A stretch of 64,000 nt of DNA from Octopus vulgaris (taxonomy: Eukaryota), in the NCBI GenBank assembly GCA_951406725.2, contig OX597839.1, positions 310,001-374,000 of the forward strand, read 5' to 3'. Below, in pieces: positions 1 to 37,045 of this stretch. Position 1 is the first letter of the stretch. Each line of letters starts with the position of its first letter. The translations under genes were made by a program, and so were the position numbers. Below the pieces are notes generated by a model. It did no database searches, was not told the origin of the DNA, and saw nothing but the letters and a program-made list of their open reading frames with translations.

Positions 1-1187
1 AAGATCACAATCTCTCCGCTCCATGTCGTAGTCCACCATCCAACCGGGAGAGCGCCTTGCTCGTCGAGATCTTCTCAAGCTGGGCTCCTCGTTCTCCCCC
101 TCTCCAGAATCGTCGTCCGTTGAAGCGACAATCCTGCGAAGGTCCAAGACGTGTCGTGGCGTTCCATCTACTGATACGTTGTTTCTGGAATTGACCGCCG
201 TCACCGTTCCTCTGCTCCATTGAGACGTACAGCGCGCCTTTGGTGGCTTGACCCAGACTTCCTCCCCTATTTTCACGCAAACGGGTCCCTTCTCTTCCTC
301 GTGATCCTCCGGCGCTTTGTTCGGGTGCCTCCATTCATATTTGAACACAGCTCTCTGCGGCACAGAATCTTCAGCTTGTCCGGATCGGGGAGACAAGTTG
401 TACCAAAAAACTGCTTCAAGCGGCGAAATATGCCCTCTTTCCGCTATGGCCTTGACTGTCCGATGGTGCCTCTCCACGATCCTGTTACCGCTCGGTCTAT
501 ACGCTGCTCTGAACAAGCGTCGCACATTCCACCGATCAAGCATAACCCTCAATACTTCTGAACGAAACGCCGCCCCGTTGTCCATCAGTAGTTCTTCCAC
601 GGGACCTCTCTCTAAGAATATCCCGTTCAGGATCTGCGCGATCTCGTCAGCAATGCCCGATCTAAACTCCCTGCAAATGGCCAGCCGGCCCTGCCCGCAG
701 TCGACCATGGAGAGGTACATTCGCTGACGGTAGTGTGTCACGTCCACAGCTAGCCTTTTCCAGTTCTGCTCCACGGAAAGGCTTCCCTGTTCATGCTTAC
801 ACGGAGCAGGGTCGATGGACTGACACCTGTCGCAGCTCCCGACCACCTTCCAGATGCTTCTCCTAGTGACGTCAGCATCAATTTTCTTCGCCAGATACAG
901 GGTCCTGTCCACACCCAGGTGATGCATAGCATGCAGTTTCTTCAGTTCAGAGTCATCCAACCGACACGCCGCAGCTATCCCTTTCCGGGCCTCCTCCGGT
1001 TCTTCCAACCACGCTCTTTTCACCCTGGTCAGTACGTCCACCCTGTTTTTCTCCGAAGGCACGAAAACCACGCTCAGCTTCAGTCCGAACTCGGCGATCA
1101 ATTCACCTAGAACTCCTAGACGGCGCTTCACTAACATCTCTGCAGTGCCTTTCGTCCGCACTCTCCTTTCACAGGTGATCACCGATC

Positions 1188-2683
1188 CTACCCAGCCAAG
1201 CACAATGGCCGGATTTCAATCGTGCGCAGCCCCCATTTCAAGGCCAAGTTCACCCCTTTCAGCACCGCGTCTAATTCGGCGACATTGATGTGGTTGAAAT
1301 AATCTGCTTTCCGAAGCCAGGCCGCGTCCTCCACCGCAGCGCCTTCGATTGCCAACACCACCCCTATCGCTATACTGCTGGCATAACACCAGACGGTCCC
1401 GCATTCCGTCTTGGGCACGTACCAGACCCCCCCTGACCGGGTTTTCCGCTCTCGGCCTCTCCGGGATTTCCTGTATCATCGCCACCTTTTCTCACCTTGT
1501 CGCCCCAACTCTCCCCTTCTGCTCGTCTCTTGGTGTAACTACACGCCGTGCGCAGCCATCCAGCGATCGGGTAGTGACCGACCAACTTCCCACACGCCGA
1601 GAACAGCTCTCTCCTGCTGACGCTGGAACTCAGCTCTGGGATCTCATTTCCTCTCCGGAACACCAATTCACCCGATCCATTTCTTCGCAGCTTCAGCCCC
1701 AGCGCGGCTCCCCCTTCAATCGACTCCGGTGGCTTGGCAATCAGTCCGAACTTTTCCAGATGTCTAACTACCTCGTCGGCTGGCACTACAGTTTCGTCCA
1801 CCAAAATGTTGTCAATGTAGGAGCTGGTGGCCTTTCTAATCTTGCCGTCTGCCGCCATAATCTTCGGAGCGGAATTCAGCCCGAAACCCAGCCTGGTTAG
1901 ACAGTACGTCCGGCCCTTGTACCGCACCAGCTGATATCGCCACAGTTTGTCGCTCACATGGAGCTGCAAGTATGCCGATCTCAAGTTGACAATCGTCGCT
2001 GCCTCGGTTGACTGTCTTCACTTACGTAACGCCTCGCCACAAACGTCTGTCGCCTCACCTCCCGTGTGACACGATATGTGCTGGTTTAGCTCCCTGAAGT
2101 CCAGCACCGGTCTGACTTTCCCCTTCGTAGGCTGCACCACCGCCATCAGGGGTAGCACTCCGCCCGCTACCTCCTCCTTCCAAGGGACAAGGACCCCTTC
2201 CTCGATCCACCTCTCCACCTCGTCTTCAAACTCGACCCTGGCGTGGCCTTTCAGGGTATGCTGGTAACAGCTCACCCTGTTATCCAGCGTCGGGGGCTCG
2301 TCCTTCCATCGCCACTCTATCGTCCACCGCTGATCATCGAACGCCGCCTGAAAGTCTTTGTCCTCGATGGTGTAAGCGGCGCAGTCCCTCGCGGAGCTCT
2401 GCTCTCTCTGGCGATCCTGACTCGCAGTGCACGACGCCTCCACGCTTCCGAACGTGACCTCATTTCCCACAACACTGACGCCACCGAGGCAGTTGATGGC
2501 GTCCATCCCCATCACCACATCAACTCCATCTATCACGCGTTCGGCCACAATTGCCTGCAGCCTTAGCGTCGCACCGCGCACCACTATCTCTACCTTGCTG
2601 CTGCCTCTGCAACGGATTTCGCTGCCGTCGACCGCCCGGACACTACTCACTCCGTTCCATTCCTTCGTCACCCTCGAAGTCAC
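1188..2683 (-). pseudogene. Gypsy pol fragments (protease/RT/RNase H), frameshifted
   Basis: ORFs 2018-2683, 1370-1984 and 1188-1418 carry successive RT and RNase H motifs in different frames; catalytic YxDD reads YIDN. Confidence 0.8.
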
Positions 2684-3507
2684 AAGGGTGGTCGTACAGC
2701 CGCATCCACGAGGGCCTTGAACGTCTTCCCCTCGGCCTCCACGTCAATCAATGACAGCGTCTCCAATAGCGCCTCTACTCGTTTGCGGGGAAAGTTCGAG
2801 AGGCAGCAACTTCCCCGCGGTCGTTGCCCTGTCTGCCTGCATCGATAGCAAACGGGCCTCGGCTGTGTACAGTCCCGCGCCATGTGCGGTCCCTGGCATC
2901 TAAAACACCGTCCTGAGAACGGCCGCTCTCGTTGCATGATAAGCTTCTGTACGTCTTTCTCGGGACGTCGTCCGTCTTTACGCGCCTCCGTCACCGCCAT
3001 TGCCTTCCACCCAGAGTGTCTCGTCAAAACGCAGGTCTGAGCCACGAGTTCGCTCAGCGCCATCTTTTTAATCCCGGGCAGTCGTTGTAGGTGAATCCCT
3101 ACATCGTCGGGGAACCCATTCACAAACGCCAGCCGGGCTGCTCTCTCCAGCCCTTCTCCCGCAAACCCAGCCAGAGTCGCTAACCTTCTAACTTCTGCTG
3201 CATAGTCATCCTCTTGGCTTCCCGTCCACCTGATTGCACCTAGCTTAGCAAAAGCTGTGTATTCGCATTCCGTGTAGGCATCCCGCAAGCGTCGCTCTAT
3301 GTTCTCCTTGCTGAGCCGTTCCTCTTCATCCATCTCAAGGTATAGCGTTAAGGCACTCCCTTCTAAATACAGCGCCATAAGACTTGCAACATCGCTTATA
3401 CCTTGCAGTCTTGCCACCAGCCTGATTTTGCGAATCCAGGCCACTACATCGCCTTCACCATTAAAAAGTCTGACGACGTCGCTGGCGATCCTAATTTTTG
3501 CAGACAT
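2680..3507 (-). pseudogene. Gypsy gag (zinc knuckle) running into aspartic protease start
   Basis: 275-aa ORF with a CX2CX4HX4C knuckle and a second partial knuckle; C-terminus resembles the start of a retropepsin (KALVD). Confidence 0.8.
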
Positions 3508-3522
3508 CGTGGCGACGAATCG

Positions 3523-3838
3523 TGTTGAAATGTAAATGTTTAAGAACTGCCGAAATAGCTTGTGGTGTGTGCACGATTTGAATATAAAGGCACCTACCTT
3601 CTCTTCCTCATGATGGAGACCCTTCTGTGGTAGCTAATCCTTCGACACAGCCCCGACCCGAACACTAAAGATAGCAGCTGCTCACCCAAACCCTTAGCAA
3701 CCGTCCTCACACGTCTTGTCACCTGGACGACCCACGTTGGAAAGGCCCAATTGACCGCTGCCTGCGCACGCCTGGCAGCTGCCCTTCCGGTTGCCCCAGC
3801 TTCCGGTCAACGCTCCCAGCTGCTGACGTCATCCCACA
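3523..3838 (-). repeat. Putative 5' LTR of the Gypsy element (~316 bp)
   Basis: On the minus strand it begins TGTGGG at 3838 and ends TTTCAACA at 3523 (TG...CA termini), just upstream of the gag ATG. The partner LTR is outside the window. Confidence 0.5.
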
Positions 3839-18221: not shown

Positions 18222-20665
18222 TGATTTTTTATTACCCACAAGGGGTGAACATAGAGGGGACAATACGACCTGATGTGGGGTCAGATTTTCGGATGGGATT
18301 ACAAAAAGATGAGCTTTTAAAAGTTTACAAAAATACAAAAATATCAAAAAATCGAATGAAGAACAGACCGGAAGACATTACGGATGGAGTGGGGGCGGGT
18401 TTAGCTCGGACCCCACGAGCCCCGCCTCACCACTGATACTTTGGTTTCCGTCCTGTTTTACATTTATGTGGTATCATTCACACGCAACATTCGTGCTACA
18501 TCCTTCCATCTTTCTTCATACCCTTTCTTAGTCAGGCATTTTCTCTCCAGCCCTATCTTCCTTTTCAGGTGAAAGATGAAGTAATTCATCAAACCAGGGC
18601 CGGATATGAACTTGCCTGACCGTAAACCTTTCATTCTCGTCTTCCATATCACCTCTTTCACAATTGCAACTACAACGAGAAAACAATTCTTAGCTTCTTT
18701 CGCGAGGAAATCTGGTGGGTCAATTTTTATAATAGACTCAGTCGACAGCTGTACTCTTCATGTGCTTGACAACAGCTGTTCGGCATAAACCCACACCTCT
18801 GACACAACCGAACATTGAACAATAGCATGCGGGACGGTTTCCCTATCCCGCTCGTATCTTGGACATGTCGGACTGTCTTGGCCATAGTGCCTTGCGAGTT
18901 TATCCCGAACAAGTAGAGCTCCTCTGTAACATTGCCACGCCAGAGACTTCTGGAAGTTGTCCAGGGTCTTCGGCCCGAATATACGTTGGAACAGACTGGC
19001 CAGCTGATTATCGTCGAGACCTAGGGCTTCCCCTAAGGTATCTTCACTTTTCGCCTCTACCAGCCCTCTATAGAAGAATGTGGTGGAACCCCCACCGCAG
19101 GCGTTGCCCGAGCGATGGAATAGCCACCGCCAAGACCAGGTCTTGACTACTGCAGCCACCCTGCTCGATACCTCACCCCAGTTCTTCTCTATTTGGAGGT
19201 CTGGTCCAAACCAAACCCCTAGCAATTTAATCAGACCCTCCAGGTCCTCTTGCCTCTCCATGTGCCAAGCTGCAAGCCGACTGACTTTTCACAATTAACC
19301 TTTGCTCCTGTCACCGTCTCGTAAACCTCTATGGCCTTGCCTACCCTCTGTAGGTGATCCATTTCGGTTACGATGATGGTGATGTCATCCGCGTAAGCTG
19401 ACACCGATTTTCCACAACCTGGCTGTCTCGGGATGCTGCTCAGTTTTCGCAGTAATGGCTCAAGAGCCACCACGTACAAAAGCAGGGAAAGTGGACACAC
19501 TTGACGAACCGAGTGCTTGATGTTGAACGGCTTCTTTTCGAAGCTGTTCACCCGAACTACCGAGTCGATGTTATCGTAAATTTGAATAATCCACCTGAGG
19601 AAGCTCTGGGCCAGAACGGACACCAGGTAGTGATGGTCGACCCTATCAAATACTTTAGGTTGGTCTAAATGGACCAGTGCCCCACCCTTGCCAGAGACAC
19701 TATTAAACCCCTCTATAGTGTACCGCATAAGATGGAGATTATCCTGAATGGTTCTGCCGGGAACATCACATGTCTGTACCTCCCCGATCAGACCATCCGC
19801 GACATGCGCCAATCTTTTCGATAACACTTTGGCCAAAATCTTCAACTCTGTGTTTAGCAGAGTGATGGGCCTGAAATTATCAACGCACTCCCCCTTGTTC
19901 GGGTCCTTTCTGACGAGCGTCACTACTCCCTGCCGCACAGATCTGGGAATGAACCTGTTCTGCTGCCAGTTCGCATAGACCTTCGCCAGTAGGTGCCCGA
20001 ACAAGTCTGGCATACTCTTATATAACTCATAGGGTAGACCATCCAAACCCGGCGCCTTGCCCACGCCACAGTTCGCCATTGCCTCAGCCACTTCCTCAGG
20101 CGTGATTGGCCCTTCACAGCCCTCCGCATCTCACCCCGATAGGTGCGGCAGCCCGTCGAGGAGGTCCGTAAAGTCCCTCCTTCTATCCGGTCCGCCACCC
20201 CCACCAAAAAGCTGAGCGAAGTGCTCCTGAAAGGCCTCACACATCTCCTCGGGTTCATTTATCAACTTACCTTGTTGGTTCGTCAAAGATCGAATTGTGC
20301 TGTTCCCGGCAGAACCATTCAGGATAATCTCCATCTTATGCGGTACACTATAGAGGGGTTTAATAGTGTCTCTGGCAAGGGTGGGGCACTGGTCCATTGT
20401 GGCATCATTACCACGCTGAGCTTCCACCACTCAGGCCCATCTCGTGGCATTGATTCCCTCACAACCCACTGCGCGGATCCTAGCCCTGACAATGCAGCCC
20501 ATGTGTTTGGCCTCGAGGTGCTGGTTTAACGCCAGTCTCTTGGCCGTCACCTGAGCCACAGAGCCAGTTTTCATGGCTTCCTCTAATTCCTTAGCTAGAG
20601 TTAATTCCCTCCTAGCGTCTCTAGCCACTAATCCTATGCTATATCTAATAGACTCGAATTTAATG
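18222..20665 (-). mobile_element. 5'-truncated L1/Tx1-clade LINE (ORF2 RT and C-terminal region, 3' UTR)
   Basis: ORF 19231-20091: KAPGLDGLPYELY, FRPITLLNTELKILAK, FDRVDH, AYADD. Downstream zf-RVT-like CPR...ETVPHA..C. Minus-strand AATAAA near 18230. Confidence 0.9.
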
Positions 20666-22439: not shown

Positions 22440-23290
22440 TAATTACATAAATACAAAATGTACCACCATGCATTTTGGGAGGAGAAACCCAGCGTCCACC
22501 TACTCCCTCCACAACACTAGTCTCAAAAAGTCTTCATGTGAACGTGACCTGGGTGTTATTGTCGACAGTGATTTGCGTTGGACAAAACACATCGCTAAAA
22601 TTGTCAAGAAGGCTGAGGGTGTCTTGGCATCACTCACCAAATCCTTTGTGAGCCACTCTCCGGCTATCTATCTGAGGCTTTATATAGCTATGGTAAGACC
22701 TCACCTGGAATTTGCATCACCGGTCTGGAACTGCTATCTTGCCCAGGACATCAATCGTCTGGAAGCTGTTCAGCGACGTGCAACCAAAAGAATACCCTCC
22801 ATCAGGCATTTGCCATATCCTGAACGCCTTACTTCCCTGGGCATGGACACATTGAAACTCCGACGTCTGGCAGCTGACTTGGCAGACACCCATAAAATTA
22901 TCAACCATCGCACAAACAATAACTCTGAGCACCTCTTCAAACTCCACCCGTCTAACACCCGTGGACATATTTACAAAGTAAGAAAACAGCACAGCTCCCA
23001 TGACTTCAGGAAAGATTTTTTCACGCTGAGAGTTGCTGAAGCATGGAACAAACTGCCGGCATCGGTTGTTAGTTGTCGGAGCACTGCATCCTTCAAAACT
23101 TCCATGCATCCTGAGATTCGCCAACACTACACTTGATTTTCTCCCCTCCATACACACACAAGCATGTATCTGATTCATACATTGTTCGCTTTCCAGACAT
23201 TTCTACATTACTGCATGTACTTTATATGCACTTTCTGACAAGTTGTGGTGCACCTGAGCACTGTATACAATAATTTCATTATTATTATTT
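22440..23290 (+). mobile_element. CR1-like LINE 3' end (ORF2 C-terminus, 3' UTR, (ATT)n tail); short 3' copy at 27562-27775
   Basis: ORF 22468-23136 has ERDLGV, VRPHLEFASPVW, FFTLRVAEAWNKLP; the tail is duplicated at 27562-27775. Confidence 0.9.
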
Positions 23291-24876
23291 TCATTATTAT
23301 ATATGCATACATACACACACATGCATACCGACACACATACTTACATACATACTGTTTGTGTGTGTCCCACAGTCATCGCCGGACAACAGGTGTTGGTTTG
23401 TTTTTATGTCCCCAACAAAAAATAAAGAGAAATCCCATCCTATGTGGGATAGCAATTCCAAAAGCCTGACCAGGGAACTTCTGCTCCAAATGCAATGAAT
23501 GTTCATAGCGCAAAATTCATCAAATTCCGTCCCATCCTCACCCCACAATTTCTTGTTCCTGATATATTTCTAAACGTTTCTTTTGTCTCAAGAAAATTAA
23601 GACAGAAGAAGAGGTAAATAATTTGAGCTCGAATGCTGCGATTTCATTGGTTAAAATTCTTAAAATTAAACTACGTTTAAGTTACGAATTACAATTTTGT
23701 TTTCAATTTTGTTTACAATAATGTTTTCTTTTGACACATTCTACCAGTATACGAAGTTTAAAATTTTTTAGTTAACTAGGAAAATCTGGCCTTCAAAATG
23801 AAAAGATCCTGGTCTTTTTCAACCATTTGTCCGTCCTTAATCTACTCTAGATTATTACGATATCGACTGCCCGACTTTACTTCCACCACCTCTTGTCCAA
23901 ATTCACACTCTATTTCTCTCGTACCTCTTTCTCCCTGTCTTCTCTTCTCGCTTTCTTTTTCACATTGCTCTCTTTCTCTCTCTCACGTTTTTTTATTCTC
24001 TCACTCAATTCATTCTCTCTCTCTCACTCACATCTCTTACTCTGACTCTCTCACTTTTCTTACTCTCCCCCCTATCTCTCTCACTCACAGCTCTTACTCT
24101 GACTCTCTCACTTTTTTTACTCTGCACCCCCTCTCTCTCTCTCACTCACATCTCTTACTCTGACACACTCACTTTGTCCTCTCTCCCTCTCACTTTTTTT
24201 ACTCTGCCACCCCTCCTCTCTCTCGATCACTTCTCTTACTCTAATTCTCTCACTCAATCCATGACGGATGTAAAGAATACATACACCTCCCGTTTTCGGC
24301 CTAACAAAAGCCCTAAACCCTAAACCCTCACCCCAACTCACTCTGTCCACTCTCTCTCTCTCTCTCTCTCCCTCTTTATCTCCATATCCCCCTCTTTTCT
24401 TCCACCCTTTCTTCCTCCTTCTCCACTTACTCTAATCTTTAACATTGAGCAAGATCATTGATCGAACTCACCAACCAATGCTTTAAAGAAAGCAGACACT
24501 AAAAAAAAACAATAAAACATAAACAAAAACAAAAACCCATACCAAGGGAGATAATTATCAGCTGAGTTTGTTTCGGTGTCGAGAAATTACGTTTGATCGA
24601 CGGAGCTGCCAGCGAAACACTGTAAGTTTTCACCTTAAATATATATACATATATATATATATATTTTAGAATTTTTTTGCGTAATAAGATAAAAAAACCA
24701 AAGGTGTGTAGATATTAGAGCATACACACGCTGACATAGAACCAACGTTGAACCCCTTATTCGCAAAATCACCGAACCTGGAACTTAACTATGGTCTGTC
24801 TATAGCACTTATTCAGCGTTACCTGACACCTTTGGGTCTCAATCACACCATTATCTCTTATATATATATATATATT

Positions 24877-25315
24877 TAAATATTTGGCGATCTTTCGTCT
24901 CTCGTAGACCTTTCCGTCGATTTCCGTAAAAATTTTTTTTTTTTTTTAGATATGGGCTTGCGGGAACTTTTGAAGTAATGAGAGCGAAAGAGACTAAGAG
25001 AAAGCGATTGTATGACGAGGGAAGTTCTTTTGAAGTTACCGTGCATGGCAAGCATTGATGTACATGTGTGTGTGTGTTTGATGGAGTGTGGGAGAGACAG
25101 TATGTTGTGTAAGTGAAGTGCTTCTGTTAGTGTGTGCGAAGAGACAGAGAGAGTAATGTGTGAAAGAAAGAGATAACTGAAATTTTTTACTCGGTGTATG
25201 TGTATATGTATGTATATTACTTCAAAAGTTCCCGCAAGCCCATATGTAAAAAAAAAAAATTTTTACGGCAATCGACGGAAAGGTCTACTAGAGACGAAAG
25301 ATCGCCAAATATTTT
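24877..25315. mobile_element. MITE-like element with ~100-bp terminal inverted repeats inside (TA)n
   Basis: AAATATTTGGCGATCTTTCGTCTCT...TTTTGAAGTAAT matches the inverted ATTACTTCAAAAG...GATCGCCAAATATTT. Confidence 0.8.
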
Positions 25316-25717
25316 AATATATATATAATGTGTGTGTGTGTTTATTTGAATGTCTTTTTAATGTTTCATTTAGAGTCTCTTTACCCTTCTCCGTTTTTAC
25401 ATTGATGTAAATAACTCGTCTTGGGTGTTCGTTGGGCCGTCCTTTGTCTCGTTAAACAGAGATTCGGGAGAATACACACCACATTGACAATCAGATCCCC
25501 TGGGATCGATGTGATCGATTAAAATCGTCAACGAAAATCAGTAGGAGAGTAAACCCTATGTTAAATTAAGCCTGGAAGATAATGACATCCGCCCCTCTCC
25601 AAGCAGTGTTCCTTGACCGTTTTAATTGCTATTTTACTCGGATGGTCCCCTATTGAGCCATTCGATATTTTTAAAGTTTTATTATATATTCTACTATTAA
25701 ATGTTATTAGGAATTGT

Positions 25718-26123
25718 GGATCTTTTCGGTTTGAACGGCAGTTTTTTTTAATAATTTCCGCGTAACTAAATACTTTTAAACTTCGTATACTGGTAGAATG
25801 TGTTTATAAAACATCTTTTTGTCTTGGCTTTATTGAGAAAATTCTGTAGTTTGTAAGCTATTTGTTGTTGTTTTTTTCTGCAATTTCAACCAATCACTGA
25901 CGTCTATTGAGGTGAAAACATTCTGTGCCGTATGAATATGTCCCTCGTTTAAGAAACAGATTGGGTTTATTTACATTTGTGAAGAAAAAAAGATACCCTT
26001 CCCCCTAACCCCTAACCCTAAAACAGATTGAAATGCAATAGATCGATACTAGGGTCATAATTATGGGTGACAATTTCATATGAGACCGCTAGAAAATAAC
26101 TGCCGTTCAAACCGAAAAGATCC
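25718..26123. mobile_element. 406-bp MITE, GG-starting TIRs, 8-bp TSD GGAATTGT (Merlin-like or hAT)
   Basis: TIR GGATCTTTTCGGTTTGAACGGCAGTT / AACTGCCGTTCAAACCGAAAAGATCC; identical 8-bp flanks. Confidence 0.9.
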
Positions 26124-27279
26124 GGAATTGTATAAAAACATTTATTAAAATATCTTGTGTATTGTAGAAGTATGACCAGTTTATTGGAGATAAATGTTAA
26201 AATATTTGATGGGCCTCAATCCATTGCCCTACGTTGCTGCTACGATCTGCTAGAAGCAACAATCAAACCTGCCTCAAAGTAAATCTCCCTTACTGTCTTC
26301 GGAAATGAAACGACCCATTGAATAATGTAGTCCTAAATACACCATGTCAAAATAAACTACAGAATATATTAGAAAATGTCGTAGACTCGCTATGTATATA
26401 AAATAGAATACAATAAATACATTATGTCCCGGACATAACTATTTTTATGCAAATCACATTAGGTAGTGTATCCTAGATACACTATGTATATAAAACATCA
26501 CACTGGTTCATATAATCCTAGATACACAATGTCCTTATATATGACATCATATTCTGTACTTTCGGGATGACAACAAACAAGATGAGGACACCTATCCCTC
26601 CATTGTAAATAATATCAGATAATGTCCTAGATACACGATATCTGTATAAATCAAAATACATTAAATGATGTAGTCTTCGATACACTATGTCCGTATATTA
26701 GATAATGTTTTCCTAGACATATTACGTTTGTATAAAAGGCAGAACACATTAGAATAATGTAGTCCTAGATACACTGTCTGAAAGATTGGACGGTCGTGAT
26801 TGAAAAAGCTTTGATCACCATAGATCTGCTCATTCAAAGTTGACATCGGGTTAAACCACTTCAACACGCACCAGCAAATGTGGTTACCTCTATGTGGTTG
26901 TTCGGCCTACTAGAAATAGCAGCCAGTCTCTCGCAAAGCTTACGTTTATTCTTTTCTCATTTATTTGTGTCAGTCATTTGACTGCGACCATTTTGGGTTT
27001 TTAGTCGAATAAATCGACCACAGTACTTATATTTTGTTATAGTCGGGTATTTATTTTATCGGTTTCCTATTGCCGAACTGCTAAGTCACCGAGGTCATAA
27101 ACAAAAGAACACCTGTGGTCAAGTGATGAGATGGGGTGGGGACAAACACAAACAGGGAGACAGATTAGATAGATAGGTAGATAGATAGATAGGTAGATAG
27201 ATAGATAGATTGGATAGATAGGTAGATAGATAGATAGATAGATAGATAGATTGGATAGATAGATAGATAGATAGATAGA

Positions 27280-27490
27280 TAGTGGGTTTGTGCATAATTA
27301 TTGCGGCTTTTTTTCAAAAAAATTTTATTCAACAAAAACATCTTTAAATGTCAGTCTGACCGTTTGCCAATCAAATGGGAAGCAGTAATTGAAGTAGATG
27401 GTGAATATGCTTCGGAATAATCATTTAAAGATGTTTTTGTTACATGCTGTTATTGTTTTGTTGAGTAATAATTATGCACCAACCCGATAG
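27280..27490. mobile_element. Small mariner-type MITE inside (GATA)n
   Basis: Imperfect TIRs GGGTTTGTGCATAATTATT / AATAATTATGCACCAACCC. Confidence 0.6.
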
Positions 27491-28916
27491 ATAGATAGAT
27501 AGACATAGATACAGACTGATAGACCGACAGATAGATAGGTAGATTGGATAGATACATACATACGGTTGTTAGTTGTCGGAGCACTGCATCCTTCAAGACT
27601 TCCATGCTTCCTGAGATTCGGCAACACTACACTTGATTTTCTCCCCTCCATACACACACAAGCATGTTCACTTTCCAGACATTTCTACATTACTGCATAT
27701 GCTTTATACGCACTTTCGACAAGTTGTGGTGCACCTGAGCACTGTTTACAATAATTTCATTATTATTATTATTATTTATACACACACACACATATATAAG
27801 ATAGATACATAAATACATACATACATACATACATACACACACACATATATATAAGATAAATACATAGATACACACATACAAACATTCATACAAAAACTGA
27901 CAAATAGAAAGATAGAAAGATAGAGAGAGAGAGAGAAAGAGAGATGAGGTAGGCAAGGAAGGAGATTTGAGTAATTCAATGCATTTATGTATAAATAGAA
28001 CTTTACAGTTTTTGGAATGTAGGCCAACGTTTAATGCAGTATATTGAACTCAATTCTAAATATTTGTCTATAGTTTCTGTTTTGTTTTGTTCCATCTGTT
28101 GTCTCTTATTTCTTTGTGTTAAGCCTTTAAGTGAATCTATACCTTGAGATATTTGCTTGATAGACTCAAAACAATATGCATCTATGCATTATGCATTAGT
28201 GTTTTGTATACTAACCTACCGAAGGCCACTCCTGATTCTACAATACAAACTTTTTGTCTTAAAATGATGGTTTAACTTTTTAGTATTTAAACCGGCCAAA
28301 ATATTTAATCTGTTTTATGTTCAAACTGACCAGATCCAGGCTCTCACACCTACCCTACAATGTTATTCTACATTAAGTAATTACACCATCAAGATCTTGA
28401 AGATATGAGATAATGCCTGATTAATTCAAATCAATGTGAATCAATAGGCATTATGTTTGATTGAATAATCTGAACACTAAAGGGTTAAATTAAAACCTTC
28501 TGGCAAAATTTCATGTTAATTTATGTTACAAACATCAACTTAATATTGGTTTCAAAATTTGGTACAAGGCCAGCAATTTCTGGGGAGGGGGTAAGTTGAT
28601 TACATCGCCCCCCCCCCCCCCAGTGTTTCACTGGTAATTAATTTATCGCCATATAGATACGACTGGCTTCTTTCAGTTTCCATCTACCAAATCAACTCAC
28701 AAGGCTTTGGTCGGCCCAAGGTGCCACACAGTGGAGCTGAACCCGGACCCATGTGGTTGGTAAGCAAGCTTCTTACCACACAACCACTCCTACATATACA
28801 TATACAATGGGCTTCTGTCAGATCTTTCCTTTGTGTGTTTTTTTAAAATTTTTCTATTTGTTTCAGTCATTGCTCTTTGGCCATCATGGAGCCGTGTCTT
28901 GAAGGATTTTAGTCCA

Positions 28917-29171
28917 GTGTTTCCCAACCATTTTTTACCTATGGGCCCACTTTGTTTCTTGCTTTCCTTGGATGTACCCTCTTAACCATTCCATGTTTTA
29001 AAATAAATCCTATTATAATTAAATATTATCAGGGATTGTATAAAAACAATTATTAAAATATTTTGTGCATTATACAAGTTTAACTAATTTATCGGGGATA
29101 AATTTTATCAACAAAATCTTATGTGGAACCCCATGGGCCATGGGCCATCTTGACCCCAGCTGAGAACCACT
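28917..29171. mobile_element. hAT-like MITE (CAGTG...CACTG) with near-perfect 8-bp TSD
   Basis: Ends CAGTGTTTCCCAAC and GAGAACCACTG; flanks TTTTAGTC / GTTTAGTC. Confidence 0.65.
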
Positions 29172-29945
29172 GGTTTAGTCAAACACATCAACCCCAGTAC
29201 TGGTGCTTATTCTATTGGTCTCATTTGCTGAACCACTTAGTTATGATAGCGTAAACAAATCAACACTGGTTGTCAGGCAATGGGGTTAGGGAGACAAACA
29301 CAAATATGCACATACATATATAAGGTGCTGTGCAGTGAGATTGAACCCAAAACCATGTGGTTGCAAAGCGAACTTCTTAACTGCACAGGTATGCCTTATT
29401 CTTGGTCTTATTTTGATTCTTAGTACTTTGTTTTCTTGTTGGGTAGGGATTCTCTTTTTTTTCTTCTCTTTGTAAATTTGTCATTCTGATAAATATTTTT
29501 TTTTTTGTTCTCCAGCCAAATTCTGATTTTAGCACCTTATATTATATTACCAAAAATTTACATCAATTTCCAGGTAGTTCAACGTTTTAATCATTATATC
29601 TTGTCCAGCTACTAGCCAGTTTTTGTAGAAGAGTGAGCTGTTTGAATTCAGTGCCTTGAAATCGCAGAACTACATCACGGCACCTGTGACATCAAGCTAT
29701 CCTACAACTCGACTATTTCTACTCCTAATAATAAACCTAATGGTTTATTAGCATTTGCTTGTGAACAGTGGATTCTACATCACTTACATTTTCTCTCTGT
29801 CCTCCTTGCTCTCAGACAGAAGGTAAGAATCTAAAGCATTAAATTCTTTACTCTTCACAGCAGTTGATGAACTTACCAAACCCTTCTGTGAATTCCTCCA
29901 ATGTTTATTACTGTATGACAATCAATTTTGCCCTAATATATTACC

Positions 29946-31433
29946 ATGGAGATTCCAAAGAACTTATCTGATGCCTTGATGGCTGTGTTCTTTCTCCTGG
30001 CTTTCATACTTTACCAAGCTTATCACTTCAAATTTTCTTTTGAACTAATTGTTCTCGTATCTTCAGCCAGAGAGAACTTTGACCACCGAACAATCATCAG
30101 AAATACGTGGGCGTGTAATGAATCCGGAGAACTAGGCAACCAAATTAAAGTGTTTTTTGTGGTTGGAGATAAATCATGTCCATTTCCCACAGAAGACAGA
30201 CTGGATGCATACTCGTGCCGTCCTTGGACACCTCAGACTACTCACTTGCAAATTACCAACCAAGAAGCTTTAATCAGCTCAGCATATGATGATAAGTCAC
30301 ATCGAGGTAACATCCTAGAGCCTCAACCTGTCGGTTTAGAATTGACTGCATCCAGATACCCTCGTTTAAAACTCTTTATAGCATTCCGTATTCTTCATCC
30401 AATCATTATTCGGAAATTTGGCCTTCATAAATCAATTAAAGCTGATGCCAGTCTGCCACGGATTCCTGTTGTGCTACTAAATGGTGGCAACCAAGAAGAA
30501 GTTGTCCGTGTTCACTTCAGTGACATTGACCCTGGTATTCCGCAAAACAATTTTTACTACCAACCCGTGGAGGCTTTTCTTCTTCCAAAAGACTTTGAAG
30601 GAATTCTAATGCTTGATATTCCCGAAAACACAGATATCTCGTATTCTGATAACATAAACAACATCTCAGCGGCGTTTTGCTTACCTCCAGATAGTAACAC
30701 TGTTATTTACTTTTATCAAAGCAACCCCGACATACGTTGCTGGTCGCAACTGGCTACGAATTTCATCTATGACATAGATGACTTTGGAGTTTTAGAGAGG
30801 CATATAACAGGTCGTCCTGAACGACACAAGAAATGGACTGCAGAAAAGTGGATAGAAGAACAACGTTTATTAGATGAGAAAAACAAATTTTCTGATTTAA
30901 TGGTTGTTCAACAGATAGATGTGTACAGAAATTTGCCAAACAAGTTACTTCTAGCTCAGAAAGAGCTGATGAAATGGCACAAATATTCTTATGTATTGAA
31001 AACTGACGATGATTGTTTTCTTAATTTGAAGCAAATTCTAAAGCATTTAGACAGCATCAAGTATAAAACATTTTGGTCTGGTAAATTCCGTTCCAACTGG
31101 GCAGTTGACAGATATGGCAAATGGGCCGAATGGCTATATGATTCTGTGGTGTATCCGAAATTTGCTTGTGGATCTGGTAATGTATTCACGTCAGATATTA
31201 GTCAGTGGCTCGCAAACTCTTCTGATTACTTGAAAGTTTATCAGGGGGAAGATGTGACGATGGGCATTTGGTTAGCAGCAGCTTTTGGTCCAGTCACTGT
31301 GGATGACCAGCGATGGCATTGTACAAAAACTTGCTCTCCCGACATGTTTTCCATGCCGGATCTCACCACTGAGGAGTTGTCACGTATGTGGGCTGATAAG
31401 ATGAATTGTGGCAACCCGTGCGGGTGTGAGTGA
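29946..31433 (+). CDS. B3GALNT2: UDP-GalNAc:beta-1,3-N-acetylgalactosaminyltransferase 2-like (GT31), intronless CDS, 495 aa
   Basis: N-terminal type II TM anchor; GT31 motifs SAR..R.IR.TW, KTDDDCF (DxD), YPKFACGSG, QGEDVTMGIW; C-terminal CGNPCGC typical of B3GALNT2. Confidence 0.9.
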   Translation: MEIPKNLSDALMAVFFLLAFILYQAYHFKFSFELIVLVSSARENFDHRTIIRNTWACNESGELGNQIKVFFVVGDKSCPFPTEDRLDAYSCRPWTPQTTHLQITNQEALISSAYDDKSHRGNILEPQPVGLELTASRYPRLKLFIAFRILHPIIIRKFGLHKSIKADASLPRIPVVLLNGGNQEEVVRVHFSDIDPGIPQNNFYYQPVEAFLLPKDFEGILMLDIPENTDISYSDNINNISAAFCLPPDSNTVIYFYQSNPDIRCWSQLATNFIYDIDDFGVLERHITGRPERHKKWTAEKWIEEQRLLDEKNKFSDLMVVQQIDVYRNLPNKLLLAQKELMKWHKYSYVLKTDDDCFLNLKQILKHLDSIKYKTFWSGKFRSNWAVDRYGKWAEWLYDSVVYPKFACGSGNVFTSDISQWLANSSDYLKVYQGEDVTMGIWLAAAFGPVTVDDQRWHCTKTCSPDMFSMPDLTTEELSRMWADKMNCGNPCGCE

Positions 31434-32339
31434 AATCAAATTTAAAGGTAAGCAGGAAATTTGGAGCAGAAATCTTGTGAGGCAGACTGAAATGATATTT
31501 TTTGTTGATGCTGTTGTTGTTTAGCCCTGGGTGATATACGACTGAGCAGAATCAAAGGCATTCCAACCATGACCATTCCTTCTACGGCATTGCTTGTTGA
31601 TAATCATATATGTGCATGTGTGTGTCTGTGTTTGTGCCACCTTGCATTGACATTGTGAGGTCGTTGTATGTGAGTGTCCCTGTCTTACAAATAGTGTTCT
31701 TTGTCTCCATTCTCCTGTGGAAACACATCTGAATACCCTACTTGGAAACTGGTAGATGTTGGTGACAGGAAAAGCACCTGGCCTTAGAAACCCACCTCCA
31801 ACGAATTCTATGTAACTCAGTGGTTCTTAACCAGGGTACATATGGCCCCTGAGGGTCCATATATGATTTTGGGGGCTCCATGCAGCAAAATAACAAATTG
31901 GGGATCCATAACAGTACTTTAAGGGCCCCAGAAAATATTCTGCTTTAGCTGTATGTATTGTAAGAAACCTCTGGGTTTCTTTCTCTAATATTTTACATTG
32001 TCCAACCTACACAAGTTAATGTGTGAAAACATTAATAAACAAATAAAGTTGATCACCACATCAAAGTGGCTGTTCCATGTTACTCCTAGTTTAACCCCAG
32101 GCAGATCTTCCACCAGCTGGTTATCAGTGCAGCCCCGCACCCTGTACATATATATTGCTACCCCCTACCATCCCCCAGCAGACGACAGGATCATGAGACT
32201 GACTCAGTTTTGAGCTAGTTTGCTCATCTTTGGTCACAAACACCTGATCACCAGAGTCTGCTCCAACTAGAAACAAAGCAATCAATTGATGTGATATGGA
32301 GCTTTACTTGTTAGTATACTTACTACTGTCATCTCTTGT

Positions 32340-32845
32340 GGAGGCACAATGGCCCAGTGGTCAGGGCAGTGGACTCGTGGTCATAGGATCATGGTTTCAA
32401 TTCCCAGACCGGGCGTTGTGAGTGTTTATTGAGCGAAAACACCTAAAGCTCCACGAGGCTCCGGCAGGGTGTGGTGGTGAACCCTGCTGTACTCTTTCAC
32501 CACAACTTTCTCTCACTCTTACTTCCTGTTTCTGTTGTACCTGTATTTCAAGGGGCCAGCCTTGTCACACTCTGTGTCACACTGAATCTCCCTGAGAACT
32601 ACGTTAAGGGCACAGTGTCTGTGGAGTCCTCAGCCACTTGCACATTAATAAATGAGCTGCGACGTCACTGGTGCCAAGCTGTATCGGCCTTTGCCTTTCC
32701 CTTGGATAACATCGGTGGCATGGATAGGGGAGGCTGGTATGCGCAGACGACTACTGGTCTTCCATAAACCTTGCCCAGACTTGTGCCTCGGAGGGTAACT
32801 TTCTAGGTGCAATCCCATGGTCATTCATGACTGAAGGGGGTCACA
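32340..32845 (+). mobile_element. tRNA-derived SINE family C; related copy 54285-54605
   Basis: A/B-box-like head (TGGCCCAGTGG...GGTTTCAATTCC); body CTTGTCACACTCTGTGTCAC...GAGAACTACGTTAAGGG shared with the 54285 copy. Confidence 0.65.
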
Positions 32846-33537
32846 AGACACAAGACTCTCATCTCTCATTGTGATTTTACAACCGGCTATTTTGCTTGTT
32901 GCAAATCAGTGACCGATGGTCACTTTGTTTACAACATATTGCTAGCTGGAGCGGGCTCTGGCCAGCTCTCTGGCGACCAGTTGTTCGCAACTGAAAATGA
33001 ACAAACCAGCTGGAAAGTGAGTCAGTCTCACAACTATGTTGTCTGCTGGAGGACGGTAGGGGTTCGCTTCCCTGCTAGCAATATACATGTACAGGATGCA
33101 GAGCTGCACAGATAACCAGCTGGTGGAAGATCCTGCTTGGAGTTAAACTAGTAGTAACATGGTACAGCAGCTTCGATGTGACGATTAATTTTTCTTGTTA
33201 GTATAGTCACTGTCACATTTCTTCTGGAGATTTTACAGCTAGCATCTTCTACTATAATAATACTCTTGTGTTTTTCTCCATCACAACATATGAATGAGAA
33301 AGGAAGGGGTGAAAGCAAAGTGATAGTGAGAGTGTTTCAATACTGTGTGAGTATATGTGTGTAAAAGGGAGGTATGTGAATGTTTGTGTGTGTGTAATGG
33401 AAGTGAGATGGTGAACATTCAACGCTGAAAAGAAAAATCAAACAGCGTTTCAACTATGTGTGAGTATCCATATTTATATATAAAAGTGAGAATTTACAGA
33501 AAAAACAAAAGACGGAGATGGGTGTGTAAACAACAGA

Positions 33538-33920
33538 GGCGCAGGAGTGGCTGTGTGGTAAGTTGCTTGCTTACCAACCACATGGTTCCGGGTTCAGTCC
33601 CACTGCGTGGTACCTTGGGCAAGTGTCTTCTACTATAGCCTCAGGCCAACCAAAGCCTTGTAAGTGGATTTGGTAGACGGAAACTGAAAGAAGCCTATTG
33701 TATATATGTATGCATATGTGTGTGTGTGTGTGTGTATGTTCCCCCCAACATCGCTTGATGACCGATGCTGGTGTATTTACGTCCCTGTAACTTAGCGGTT
33801 CGGCAAAAAGAGACCGATAGAATAAGTACTAGGCTTACAAAGAATAAGTCCTGGGGTCGATTTGCTCAACTAAAGGCGGTGCTCCAGCATGGCCACAGTC
33901 CAATGACTGAAACAAATTAA
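33538..33920 (+). mobile_element. tRNA-derived SINE family A; copies at ~37735-37910(-), 44128-44545, 45180-45570, 53745-53900(-), 55785-55895, 61508-61670, 63235-63640(-)
   Basis: Near-identical GGAGTGGCTGTGTGGTAAG...GGTTCAGTCCCACTGCGTGGCACCTTGGGCAAGTGTC heads with an internal (TA/TG)n tract. Confidence 0.9.
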
Positions 33921-35154
33921 AGATAAAAAGGAACTGTTGTAGCAATATGTGATTTTTTTCAGCTTGATGCCTTTGTTACAGCTCTAAGGTAACCTCTGTT
34001 TGGCTAGAAATAGAAGCTAATTCTCCCTCAAATCATAACCTTATATCTTACAAGCTAATGAACAGGAGCCTTGACATGGTTATTGTCTTACAAGAAATAG
34101 CAGCTAAATCTCCTTCAACTCACACCATACCATTTCGAAAAGAAGGACACACTTGATTTTGTCTTATGTATGCATTTGAATAAAAGAAAAGAAAATCACA
34201 GCTGGAATATCTTTGATCATAGGTCTGCCTGTTCAGGACTGACCTGGGGCTAAACAACAATGGTACCTTTAGGCAGTGAACTTTTTTGTCCTTTCTTTAA
34301 TCTTTCTCTAAATTATGACGAAAACATTGTGTGTGAGATAGAAGGGATTATAATGGTTTTTTTATATTTTATCATAAGACTAGATATTTTAGGGGGTGGG
34401 GGCGGAGTAAATTGAGTACTGGTGCTCAAGTGCTCAACTGGTACTTATTTGAATCAGAAGCAATGAAAGGCAAAGTCAACCATATTGTAATTTGAATTCA
34501 GAACATAAAAACTCAGAAGAAATATGGCTTAGAATTTTGTCAGAGATGATATCAATTCTGCCAACTTGCTGTCTATTGATAGGGATAATAACATTGTGTA
34601 AGAATTTTTTTTTTTTTTCTGTCTTTGGTCAGTAAGGGTTATTTCCTATTTGCCTCAATCTAGAAATCAAAGGAAGTGACTACTATTCCCTTCAAACTTT
34701 GCTTTTGTGATCTGGACATCAAAGTTTTGAAACTGACCTATTTTCCATTCCATTTCAGACAGATTCAGTACTGAGTTGCTGAAGCAGAAATATCATTATA
34801 GCAAATATTCTGCTCAATACCACAGATCTGCTTGTCAGTTGCTTGACCTAAACCACTTGAGCATGTCCCTTAATGGCTGACAATGTGCGCATCTCTGTTC
34901 ACATGCAGGAGCAGTGGGGGAGCATCATAGCCATGTGTTGAGAGGGATTCTTTGGGGGTTTGAATAAATGTAACAAAAGCAAGTTAGATTAAGAAATAAA
35001 GATAAAGAGACAGACAGTGTGTGTGAAAAAGAGAGAGAAAGATGAATAGAAAGAGAAAAAGAGATAGAGTTTGTAAAATCTAAATGAAATGATCTTTCTT
35101 AAAAATAATTCTTTTATCGGCCTAACTTTTCTTCTTCTGTTCCACATTTTTCAG

Positions 35155-35811
35155 ATGCCATCATCAGAAATACATGCTCTTTCGGAGCGCATTGACAAAG
35201 TTCTTTTGGAATTCTTCGATGTATTAGATAAATATTACCAATGCCAGGCCATACTGGAGGAGAATCTGAAGTCTGGTAACCTACACATGTCTCGTGCACG
35301 TTATATCCGTGGAGTGACATCAATAAGCTCCTTAAAAATCACAGAACGCGAAATGCAAGCATCCTCCCAAGTGCAGTGCTCTGGAAATGGCTTGGAAACG
35401 GTTTTTGCACTCATGTCTGATGTCAGCAGGGACGACACAGAGACTCACGCTACGGATACTTTGCGAAAACGTAATGTAGGAAAGAGCGGTAATGATGGCG
35501 CCAATGTTAATGAAGACAGCAACGACAATGAAAGACAAGAAAAAATGCCAGACGACAAGAAATCCAATGACAAGGACTCAACCAAGGACAAAAAACAGAA
35601 GTCCACATGTAAAGATCCTCTGAACTGGTTTGGCGTTTTGGTACCACAAAGCTTGCGTTATTCACAGAAAAACTACAAATCTGCCGTCGAGGCTTGTGTG
35701 GAACTGGCCAACCTCCAATTGATGATGCAGAAACTTCAGATGCAATACCAAGAACTGTTGCAAGAGAAGAACGTTTTGGCTCTGGCTGAGGTGAAAGTGT
35801 CCTCATCATAG
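35155..35811 (+). CDS. CCDC115: Coiled-coil domain-containing protein 115 / Vma22-like V-ATPase assembly factor, single coding exon, 218 aa
   Basis: Motifs G.L.MSRARY..G and DPLNWFGVLVPQSLR.SQ..Y..AVE..VELANLQ. The likely ATG at 35155 directly follows a branch point (CCTAAC), pyrimidine tract and CAG acceptor; the upstream ORF extension is intron sequence. Confidence 0.88.
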   Translation: MPSSEIHALSERIDKVLLEFFDVLDKYYQCQAILEENLKSGNLHMSRARYIRGVTSISSLKITEREMQASSQVQCSGNGLETVFALMSDVSRDDTETHATDTLRKRNVGKSGNDGANVNEDSNDNERQEKMPDDKKSNDKDSTKDKKQKSTCKDPLNWFGVLVPQSLRYSQKNYKSAVEACVELANLQLMMQKLQMQYQELLQEKNVLALAEVKVSSS

Positions 35812-37045
35812 GGCCTCACGCCTCAATGAAATACAGGACATTAAATCAATGACAGAGGGACCACTGTTGACATTTTTCCTTTTTATGTATATTATTTGTT
35901 ATAAATATATATTTTATGCAACCTGGCTTTGCTATGGATTGTTGTTCTTTATCCTTTCCCTCCTTTTACATCATCATTGTTTAACATCCGTTTTCCATGC
36001 TGGCATAGGTTGGATGGTTCGCCAGGAGCTGGTCAGGCTTCCTTTGTCTATTTTGACTTAGTTTCTGCAGCTGGATGCCCTTTTCTAACGCCAACTACTT
36101 TACAGAGAGTACTGGGTGTTTTTTATGTGGCACTAGCATGGGTAACTAAATACCCCAAATCATTTTGTTGGACATCCTAACAATTTTGCTAATCCAATCC
36201 ACTTTCTCTTTTTAGTTGACCAAAAGGTCTGCAGAACTTATTTTATTGATGTCTGTTTATTGAACTACTAAGTTCAATAGATCATCATCATCATCATCAT
36301 CATTTAGCGTCCACTTTCCATGCTAGCATGAGTTCGACGGTTCAACTGGGGTCTGGGAAGCCAGAAGTCTGCACCAGGCCCAGTCTGATCTGGCAATGTT
36401 TCTACGGCTGGATGCCCTTCCTAACGCCAACCACTCCGTGAGTGTAGTGGAGTCATGTTAGGGAACCAACACAAAGGGGTTTTTTTCTATCAAAACAATT
36501 GACCCCAGTACTTATTTTTTTAAAGCCTGTTATTCTATTAGTCTCTTTGCCATACCACTAAGTTACAGGGATGTAAACAAACCAACACTAATGTTCAAGC
36601 AGTGATGGTGGGACAAACATACATATATAATAAACTTCTTTTCAGGTTCTGTCTATCAAATCAACTCTTAAGGCTTTGGCTGGCCTGGGCTATAAGTGGA
36701 ACACACCTACTGAAGGTGTCACACATTAGGATTGAACCTGGAACCATGTGGTTGGGAAGCATTAGTTTTGGGGCCTGGTGAAAGCATAAACACTGTCAAC
36801 CCTAATTTTCAGCCATGTCACTCTCCTCTCACACTGTTATGAACTGACCCACCCCTTTGCTTTCCCCCAGATCCACTGTCCCTATTTTTCCTTATATTTA
36901 CCTTCTTGTTCCTTGAGAGTTCACTCTGGTATTTCATCACCACCATCGTATTTTAATGTGTATAAGGAACCCTTTTTAGTCAAAAATTAGGTAAAAAAAA
37001 TATGGGAGTTTCTTATACAAGGATATTATTATATTAAAAATATTG

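Follow-up and report, generated by a model that had tools for sequence, protein, structure and literature searches.

Choice of splice donor probably decides between B3GALNT2 and CCDC115 at a shared locus of Octopus vulgaris

The question raised by this locus is how two separate proteins, B3GALNT2 and CCDC115/Vma22, are made from reading frames that follow one another on the same strand. We analyzed a window of 64,000 nucleotides of Octopus vulgaris DNA (contig OX597839.1, positions 310,001 to 374,000; coordinates below are those of the window), in which the original prediction, made without RNA or database searches, had seen a bicistronic mRNA translated by termination-reinitiation and possibly switched by alternative polyadenylation. 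The reading frames, the B3GALNT2 stop codon (TGA, 31431-31433), the spacer, donor, acceptor, branch point and AATAAA positions that it described were all confirmed. The upstream frame matches the Pfam domain Galactosyl_T (E 4e-20), its named homologues are B3GALNT2, and its full-length grouping with B3GALNT2 in a tree predicts that it is the B3GALNT2 orthologue (GT31); mollusc and annelid orthologues each align to it as a single full-length tblastn piece. The downstream frame matches Vma22_CCDC115 (PF21730; E 2e-17, 64.7 bits against a cut-off of 28) and is 92% identical to the CCDC115 of O. bimaculoides.

Table 1. Features of the B3GALNT2-CCDC115 locus, in window coordinates. A slash within a motif marks the splice site.
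Feature	Position	Strand	Basis
Candidate promoter-proximal first exon (start approximate), donor ACT/GTAAGT at 24621/24622	24480..24621	+	donor motif and CpG count
Shared non-coding exon, 249 nt, alternative acceptor 29608/29609	29574..29822	+	contig pieces, AG acceptors
Donor A, AAG/GTAAGA at 29822/29823	29820..29828	+	splice joint in RNA contigs
B3GALNT2-specific 5' leader, retained when donor A is passed	29823..29945	+	RNA contigs
B3GALNT2 ORF, intronless, 495 aa, start context ACCATGG (strong)	29946..31433	+	ORF, Pfam, homologues, tblastn, tree
Spacer from B3GALNT2 stop to donor B, 14 nt	31434..31447	+	sequence
Donor B, AAG/GTAAGC at 31447/31448	31445..31453	+	inferred from contig geometry
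Intron B, 3707 nt, repeat-rich, CpG-poor	31448..35154	+	contigs, CpG count
Long inverted repeat, arms ~32038-32256 and 32968-33199, containing the AATAAA at 32042	32038..33199	.	sequence, contigs
Common acceptor: branch-point-like CCTAAC (35121-35126), pyrimidine tract, CAG	35115..35154	+	motifs; used in 29822-35155 joint
CCDC115/Vma22 ORF, intronless, 218 aa, ATG at first base of last exon	35155..35811	+	Pfam and homologues
ATTAAA, likely common poly(A) signal of both mRNAs	35840..35845	+	motif

We found 24 sequencing runs, 14 of them RNA by guess and none on record as RNA, and mapped four: X1, X3 and X5 (RNA by guess; X3 and X5 are independent studies) and the DNA-like X15. The RNA evidence consists of assembled contigs, from which single full-length molecules, RNA ends and levels cannot be read. 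A GT..AG joint from 29822 to 35155 is present in all three RNA-guess runs and in none of the one DNA-like run. This joint, from donor A to the CCDC115 exon, removes the entire B3GALNT2 frame, and shows that a monocistronic CCDC115 mRNA exists; it appears to be the more abundant form, several-fold by contig depth, which is a poor measure. The exon that precedes donor A is represented in X1 and X3 by contig pieces 29574-29822 and in X5 by 29609-29822, with AG acceptors at 29573 and 29608, and holds one 3-codon uORF, at 29740. In all three RNA-guess runs this exon continues along two routes, through the joint to 35155 and directly into B3GALNT2: the B3GALNT2 contigs start at 29793, the branch point for donor A, and continue unbroken into the reading frame. 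The B3GALNT2-specific leader adds three more upstream ATGs, at 29867, 29901 and 29915, two of which open a frame overlapping the B3GALNT2 start. The whole B3GALNT2 frame lies, as a single exon, within the spliced intron 29823-35154, a 5' intron of its host. The original prediction had overlooked donor A, the shared exon with its two alternative starts (29574 and 29609), and a region at about 24.5-26 kb that is rich in CpG and resembles a promoter.

The observed/expected CpG ratio is 1.4 in 24450-24950 and 1.0-1.4 across 24.5-26 kb, compared with 0.31 in intron B, and a search by CpG for a promoter signature in intron B (31.5-35 kb) found none, in keeping with the earlier view that no separate promoter lies between the two frames. 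A promoter of CCDC115's own in intron B is unlikely on this count and from the 5' ends of the CCDC115 contigs, which derive from 29822. Stretches of intron B that lack RNA cover are not counted here as signs of absence. The shared-exon contigs bear 47 and 145 extra upstream letters from outside the stretch mapped with contigs, where the candidate first exon (24480-24621) also lies. We consider it likely that one promoter and shared 5' exons serve both genes. At the other end of the locus the DNA contig continues to 35959, whereas pieces of the RNA contigs stop at 35822, 35850 and 35871; this is a weak hint only that the ATTAAA at 35840-35845 is a poly(A) signal, since the end of an RNA cannot be read from contigs. 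Outside the CCDC115 unit B3GALNT2 seems to lack any transcript, which in cephalopods would confound work on either gene by gene-level RNA counts, knock-downs or CRISPR edits.

The second route into the CCDC115 exon starts at donor B. Within 24000-36000 the + strand has the 7-mer AGGTAAG at two places only, donor B and 29821, with about 0.27 expected per 3.7 kb. In X3 and X5, unbranched contigs of 1682 nt with 29 left-over letters contain the whole B3GALNT2 frame; donor B alone among 547 GT/GC positions fits this length, which simulation reproduced. Simulation with both junctions gave unitigs of 249, 57, 1682 and 435 nt, of which 1682 was observed in X3 and X5 and 435 (its far end set from the data) in X3, and the single left-over letter of the CCDC115 contig in both X3 and X5 fits the same model. 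A read-through simulation gave 2044 nt, matching X1, whose contig crosses donor B unspliced, reaches 31836 and bears no trace of the 31447-35155 junction. This joint is not among the joints listed, 427 others having gone unlisted, and we infer it from contig geometry in two of the three RNA-guess runs; on that basis it is likely that an RNA in which the B3GALNT2 frame is spliced at its end to the exon of CCDC115 does exist. Relative to the total or to the shared exon, the B3GALNT2-containing form has a contig depth of 0.17-0.30, a rough measure, and the two-ORF mRNA looks like a minor form, about a fifth to a quarter by this poor measure. It would be dicistronic in the FlyBase sense, a processed mRNA with two non-overlapping ORFs of separate genes, as judged from the contigs. 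The predicted two-ORF transcript probably stands, but CCDC115 has a monocistronic mRNA of its own, whose 5' exon lies upstream of B3GALNT2. As had been predicted, the two frames do not agree across the junction (offset 2), and we rejected a B3GALNT2-CCDC115 fusion protein; read-through of the stop would add 3 codons only.

A different arrangement would be one in which B3GALNT2 mainly ends within intron B, as VAChT does inside ChAT's first intron, with the 31447-35155 splice as a second 3' end used in some tissues. The unspliced X1 contig speaks for this, as do the six AATAAA motifs in intron B, where 1.9 are expected and at least six occur in 8 of 500 simulations; however, the dinucleotide model used under-counts A-rich runs. 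In X3 and X5 the B3GALNT2 contig exits at donor B and no read-through branch survives, X1 cover at 31864-32139 is almost nil (0.82), and the depths near the AATAAAs (4.9 in X3, 4.1 in X5) are those of the intron-1 background (~4-6). Nor do the contigs show the separate acceptor exon of a ChAT/VAChT-type nested gene, as they are unbroken from 29793 and leave at donor B in X3 and X5; X1 would allow B3GALNT2 a 3' end of its own. We regard this arrangement as unlikely. The same data leave the polyadenylation switch of the original prediction, placed at the AATAAAs of 32034 and 32042, unsupported: the second of these lies in an arm of the inverted repeat, and the A>G changes listed in the intron in the RNA-guess runs, 8 of 8 of which fall in the two arms, hint that RNA runs on past it. 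The switch is probably a choice of splice donor rather than of polyadenylation.

A working operon, in which meaningful amounts of CCDC115 come from the two-ORF mRNA by termination-reinitiation across the 14-nt spacer, would draw on the likely reality of the junction, on a short spacer that contains no ATG, on the A at -3 of the CCDC115 ATG, and on cellular mRNAs that reinitiate without TURBS, some of which are described in excerpts of PMC5972666. That A stems from the donor consensus, however, and is identical in both mRNA forms. We searched the last 148 nt before the junction (31300-31447) for the TURBS core UGGGA and found no TGGGA, and one TGGG at 31389; the motif 1 expected upstream of a stop-restart site is thus missing there. 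Because the B3GALNT2 frame contains 34 ATGs and UGGGA is lacking, both leaky scanning and TURBS are disfavored as routes to CCDC115. A quantified cellular case gave ~82-fold less downstream protein, according to the same excerpts (PMC5972666), and the short spacer can be explained otherwise (see below). Since a monocistronic CCDC115 mRNA exists and is apparently several-fold commoner, the termination-reinitiation proposed earlier is not needed, and we hold the operon to be quite unlikely. It is highly improbable that the donor-B junction is misread contig geometry or functionless rare splicing noise: the joint goes unlisted, is absent from X1 and is known from contigs only, but the exact 1682 nt recurs in two independent studies, only one possible donor fits it, the entire depth of the B3GALNT2 contig exits there, and the consensus donor occurs just twice in 12 kb.

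Another candidate concerned the start of CCDC115 itself. Exactly 6 codons are open at the B3GALNT2 stop, which had suggested an overlapping start-stop there as the origin of the 6-residue N-terminal extension of CCDC115 isoform X1 of O. bimaculoides (P0143). We rejected this, as the residues do not match the frame; nearby sequence agrees at 4 of the 6 residues at best, at 31540, before a GC.

Taken together, these observations make it probable that an intronless B3GALNT2 sits inside the 5' UTR intron of CCDC115, that the two genes share a promoter, 5' exons and 3' end, and that the choice of donor decides which protein is likely to be made. Where donor A is spliced to 35155, as the contigs show, B3GALNT2 is excised and the CCDC115 mRNA results. 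Where donor A is passed, contig geometry argues strongly that the exon is extended by 1625 nt through B3GALNT2 and that donor B joins the same acceptor. Scanning ribosomes would then pass the weak upstream ATGs, start at the strong B3GALNT2 ATG, terminate and leave, so that the message probably yields B3GALNT2 alone, with the CCDC115 frame acting as a 730-nt 3' UTR that would provide the poly(A) site. The spacer may be short because, under the mammalian rule, a stop less than about 50 nt from the last junction escapes junction-dependent NMD (PMC2896932, in excerpt); 14 nt would place the B3GALNT2 stop inside this safe zone, by analogy with a rule that may not be that of molluscs. A 3' UTR of 730 nt could in itself sensitize an mRNA to NMD. 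The locus offers a compact natural test of the 50-nt junction rule in molluscs and of reinitiation after a 495-codon cellular ORF.

Comparison among relatives bears on the age of this arrangement. In all three cephalopod genome assemblies (that of the window, O. bimaculoides, and a 249348-nt ENA contig with proteins that group in the sister clade of cephalopods) both proteins lie on equal-sized contigs, while in all six other molluscs they lie on contigs of differing size. The adjacency that the original prediction proposed to compare is thus suggested to be common to cephalopods and not to other molluscs, on the basis of matching contig sizes rather than DNA. No Argonauta CCDC115 was among the matches listed (12 of 12; best 120 of 155). 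For O. bimaculoides, RefSeq accession XP_014780875 carries the name B3GALNT2-like in its version.1 and the name CCDC115 in its version.2, which would follow if a single transcript model touched both genes; annotation pipelines already exchange both names on one accession. A processed B3GALNT2 copy may have settled in the 5' UTR intron of CCDC115 in the cephalopod stem and hitchhiked on the CCDC115 promoter since then; such an event would be so old that neither a poly(A) remnant nor a target-site duplication would be expected to survive.

Metagenomes searched for DNA of cephalopods yielded 78 loci, of which none resembled a cephalopod; the best full-length match had 34% identity, and no CCDC115 match was better than E 0.48. 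B3GALNT2 falls into 3-4 pieces in four of these non-cephalopod loci (L004, L005, L008 and L011) and is a single piece in L001. This single piece, and the fact that CCDC115 is intronless too, count against an origin as a retrocopy.

A bolder reading is that the two genes were already one transcription unit in the ancestor that octopods share with the sister clade of cephalopods, that a regulated choice of donor has since tuned the ratio between dystroglycan-glycan synthesis and V-ATPase assembly, and that the two-ORF mRNA gives CCDC115 as well, through TURBS-independent reinitiation over a conserved short spacer. We think this quite unlikely; if true, it would make the locus a natural animal operon, splice-switched and translationally coupled, built from two unrelated secretory-pathway genes.

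We found no description of a shared-exon or dicistronic B3GALNT2-CCDC115 cephalopod locus in the literature searched. The class to which the locus belongs, dicistronic and with shared exons, is already well documented in flies and is not new. Excerpts of the FlyBase 'Rule-Benders' paper (PMC4528330) give 159 dicistronic pairs in Drosophila, state that some monocistronic forms come from alternative splices disrupting one coding region, and take the downstream ORF as translated from the dicistronic mRNA. Going by these excerpts, flies usually have a separate promoter for the downstream monocistronic mRNA, whereas in the octopus this mRNA arises when an alternative donor lying upstream takes out an entire ORF of 1.5 kb; the host is a mollusc, and downstream translation from the dicistronic mRNA is probably unneeded. 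The TURBS systems of caliciviruses and influenza B, and the cellular CASQ2 and GAD, resemble the locus in that the first ORF is long and another start lies near its stop (excerpts of PMC5972666), but the octopus lacks the UGGGA core and an overlapping stop-start, and its second protein has its own mRNA. As in ChAT/VAChT (PMC7524744, in excerpt), a single-exon ORF lies in the first intron of its host and products arise from a shared first exon by alternative splicing. VAChT, however, has an acceptor exon to itself, and the cholinergic pair works in a single pathway, whereas octopus B3GALNT2 is reached by passing a donor, as an exon extension, and is spliced onto the last exon of the host to give a two-ORF mRNA. 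A parallel in origin may be the 'hitchhike' retrogenes, such as mouse Taf9 using exons of Ak6, described in excerpts of PMC5408686 as intronless copies near the 5' end of a host whose promoter and 5' UTR they use; in contrast to Taf9, octopus B3GALNT2, a putative retrocopy, seems also to borrow the last exon of its host as a 3' UTR.

The two open reading frames (table below) have as their nearest named relatives B3GALNT2 and CCDC115 of Octopus bimaculoides (92% identity), which identifies the window as octopus DNA; B3GALNT2 has a role in the core M3 glycan and CCDC115 in V-ATPase assembly. A scan of the sequence placed the B3GALNT2 stop, the 14-nt spacer, the donor AAG/GTAAGC at 31447/31448 (donor B) and the acceptor that precedes the CCDC115 ATG (35155) where the original prediction had put them, and found the frame offset at the junction and the two AATAAA signals likewise as described. 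A second, equally good donor, AAG/GTAAGA, lies at 29822/29823 (donor A), 123 nt 5′ of the B3GALNT2 start, and these two donors are the only occurrences of AGGTAAG on the + strand in 24000-36000.

Features of the locus, in window coordinates
Feature	Position	Strand	Remark
B3GALNT2 ORF, intronless, 495 aa	29946-31433	+	Galactosyl_T domain match
CCDC115 ORF, 218 aa	35155-35811	+	Vma22_CCDC115 domain match
Long inverted repeat, intron B (31448-35154)	arms 32038-32256 and 32968-33199		

Fourteen of the 24 runs listed contain the stretch and are guessed to be RNA, none being recorded as such. Over region 28000-36270 we compared X1, X3 and X5, one such run from each of three studies, with the large DNA-like run X15, all four as assembled contigs. 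A GT..AG joint from 29822 to 35155 is present in all three RNA-guess runs and absent from X15, and is the sole GT..AG joint among those listed. This splice excises 5332 nt, the whole B3GALNT2 ORF included, and CCDC115 therefore possesses an ordinary monocistronic mRNA, formed through donor A; the reinitiation of the proposed operon is thus not needed for CCDC115. The non-coding exon upstream of donor A (the shared exon) starts at 29574 in X1 and X3 or at 29609 in X5, with AG preceding both starts, and its contigs extend 5′ with letters of a further exon beyond the examined stretch. A strong acceptor-like tract at 29480-29515, used by none of the RNA contig pieces listed, may offer this exon a third 3′ splice site.

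The predicted 31447-35155 junction is not itself among the joints listed (427 further rows follow), and it is implied by the contig pieces of X3 and X5. In both runs the B3GALNT2 contig is 1682 nt long and covers 29793-31445 with 29 surplus letters, and the CCDC115 contig has exactly one surplus letter ahead of 35153. For a k=31 graph of both spliced forms, the expected pieces measure 249, 57, 1682 and 435 nt (the far end of the last being set from observed data); an unspliced acceptor would give pieces of 58 and 434 nt instead. Among 547 GT/GC positions in 29830-35100, only 31447 fits the contig geometry. X1 has a 2044-nt contig that crosses donor B to 31836, as a read-through model predicts, and so this run bears no trace of the junction, a short link of the kind that assemblers may lose. 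The junction probably exists, and, since contigs do not represent individual molecules, we regard a full-length mRNA with both ORFs only as likely. By contig depth, a poor expression measure of which only the direction of the ratio is used, the B3GALNT2 form accounts for 0.27 (X3) and 0.17 (X5) of both forms, and for 0.24-0.30 relative to the shared exon. In O. bimaculoides CCDC115 isoform X1 (P0143), four of six extra N-terminal residues match the window at 31540-31559; the match ends at AAG followed by GC, 110 nt 3′ of donor B, possibly a third, non-canonical donor.

The long mRNA carries four upstream ATGs ahead of the strong B3GALNT2 start, ACCATGG. Those at 29867 and 29915 open one frame that crosses this start out of frame (29867-29971), on the long mRNA only, and could dampen B3GALNT2 translation. 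Escape from NMD would be a simpler reading of the short 14-nt spacer than reinitiation, the rule being a mammalian one: NMD spares stops that lie within the last 50 nt of the penultimate exon (PMC2896932). UGGGA, the core of TURBS motif 1 (PMC5972666), is absent from the last 148 nt before the junction; cellular reinitiation without TURBS occurs, about 82-fold under the upstream product in the single quantified case (PMC5972666), and a trickle of CCDC115 by reinitiation on the two-ORF mRNA is therefore conceivable. Leaky scanning through to CCDC115 is implausible, since the B3GALNT2 ORF contains 34 ATGs.

CpG observed/expected is 1.0-1.4 over 24.5-26 kb versus 0.31 in intron B, and a motif scan finds a donor, ACT/GTAAGT, at 24621/24622; these features suggest a single transcription start for the unit near 24.5 kb. 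Just 3′ of the candidate first exon that ends at this donor lies a near-perfect, MITE-like inverted repeat (24865-24979 and 25216-25327; arms of about 115 nt, 96-98% complementary). By eye, ORFs in 1-3500, 18758-20400 and 22468-23136 resemble remnants of an LTR retrotransposon, with a gag-like zinc knuckle, a reverse transcriptase and an integrase, and remnants of LINE reverse transcriptases. At the other end of the unit, RNA contig pieces terminate at 35822-35871, near ATTAAA at 35840, while the DNA contig continues, a weak hint that both mRNAs share this 3′ end.

A poly(A) switch at 32034-32047 had also been proposed and is unsupported: the AATAAA at 32042 sits in an arm of the long inverted repeat, and contig depth near the signals is at intron-1 background in X3 (4.9) and X5 (4.1), with almost none in X1 (0.82). 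Intron B has a mild excess of AATAAA (6 observed versus 1.9 expected; at least 6 in 8 of 500 simulations). All eight intronic A>G changes listed for the RNA runs (11 further rows follow) fall inside the two arms, which hold one quarter of covered A positions, and lie in or beside long-range pairs; one of the changes also occurs in X15, and alleles and repeats can imitate editing. They give only a hint of A-to-I editing of a pre-mRNA hairpin, for which the RNA must extend beyond the AATAAAs. Two opposite-orientation copies of a high-copy SINE-like repeat (28653-28821 and 33543-33728; 78 nt at 90%, 69 nt at 86%) flank the shared exon and B3GALNT2, and could pair in the pre-mRNA and influence donor choice.

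Linkage in relatives was judged from the lengths of records carrying each protein, not from DNA. The records that carry the two proteins match in length for the window's assembly (41231014), O. bimaculoides (26644807) and an ENA record (249348; P0006, P0125), and the Logan proteins P0137 and P0145 have a common longest contig size of 3186 nt, possibly by chance. In two trees of 19 and 17 selected rows, these four proteins fall in a clade sister to octopods within the cephalopod group (support 100/100 and 100/99). Record lengths are unequal in all six named non-cephalopod molluscs (Gigantopelta, Haliotis asinina, Pecten, Mya, Mactra and Saccostrea cucullata) with both proteins among the best 120 of 243 and 120 of 155 matches. 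The name of RefSeq XP_014780875 changed from B3GALNT2-like (version.1) to CCDC115 isoform X2 (version.2), which we read as a single transcript model spanning parts of both genes.

Among loci from a metagenome scan, B3GALNT2 is split into 3-4 pieces in four (L004, L005, L008, L011) and is in one piece in L001, so a retrocopy origin of octopus B3GALNT2 is plausible, yet unproven. The L001 copy (2186-3637), unbroken and non-cephalopod, lies on an 8.6-kb contig without a CCDC115 match; B3GALNT2 genes may have lost their introns on more than one occasion. Four proteins of the sister cephalopod clade (P0136, P0141, P0126, P0149) are predicted to begin with N-terminal extensions in which F, L, V, C and S abound, and which look like translated pyrimidine tracts just 5′ of both start codons. 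Speculatively, acceptors would lie near both ORFs in that clade, with B3GALNT2 as a cassette exon.

Taken together, our data indicate that the two genes probably form a unit with a shared promoter whose output is split by donor choice, rather than a reinitiation-dependent operon. It is undescribed in the literature found on the gene pair or on octopus bicistronic or polycistronic RNA, mostly outside subscription journals, and in the available text of PMC6279123. The type of locus is already known among dicistronic and shared-exon loci; this octopus instance is new. The available text of PMC4528330 gives, for FlyBase, 159 dicistronic pairs, 69 of them with one gene also monocistronic, some via alternative splicing, and 130 genes that have promoter and 5′ exons in common; its supplements may contain exact equivalents. 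Closest in anatomy to the octopus locus, as far as the accessible parts of these sources describe them, are ChAT/VAChT, where VAChT lies inside the first intron of ChAT (PMC7524744), and the hitchhiking retrogenes (PMC5408686).
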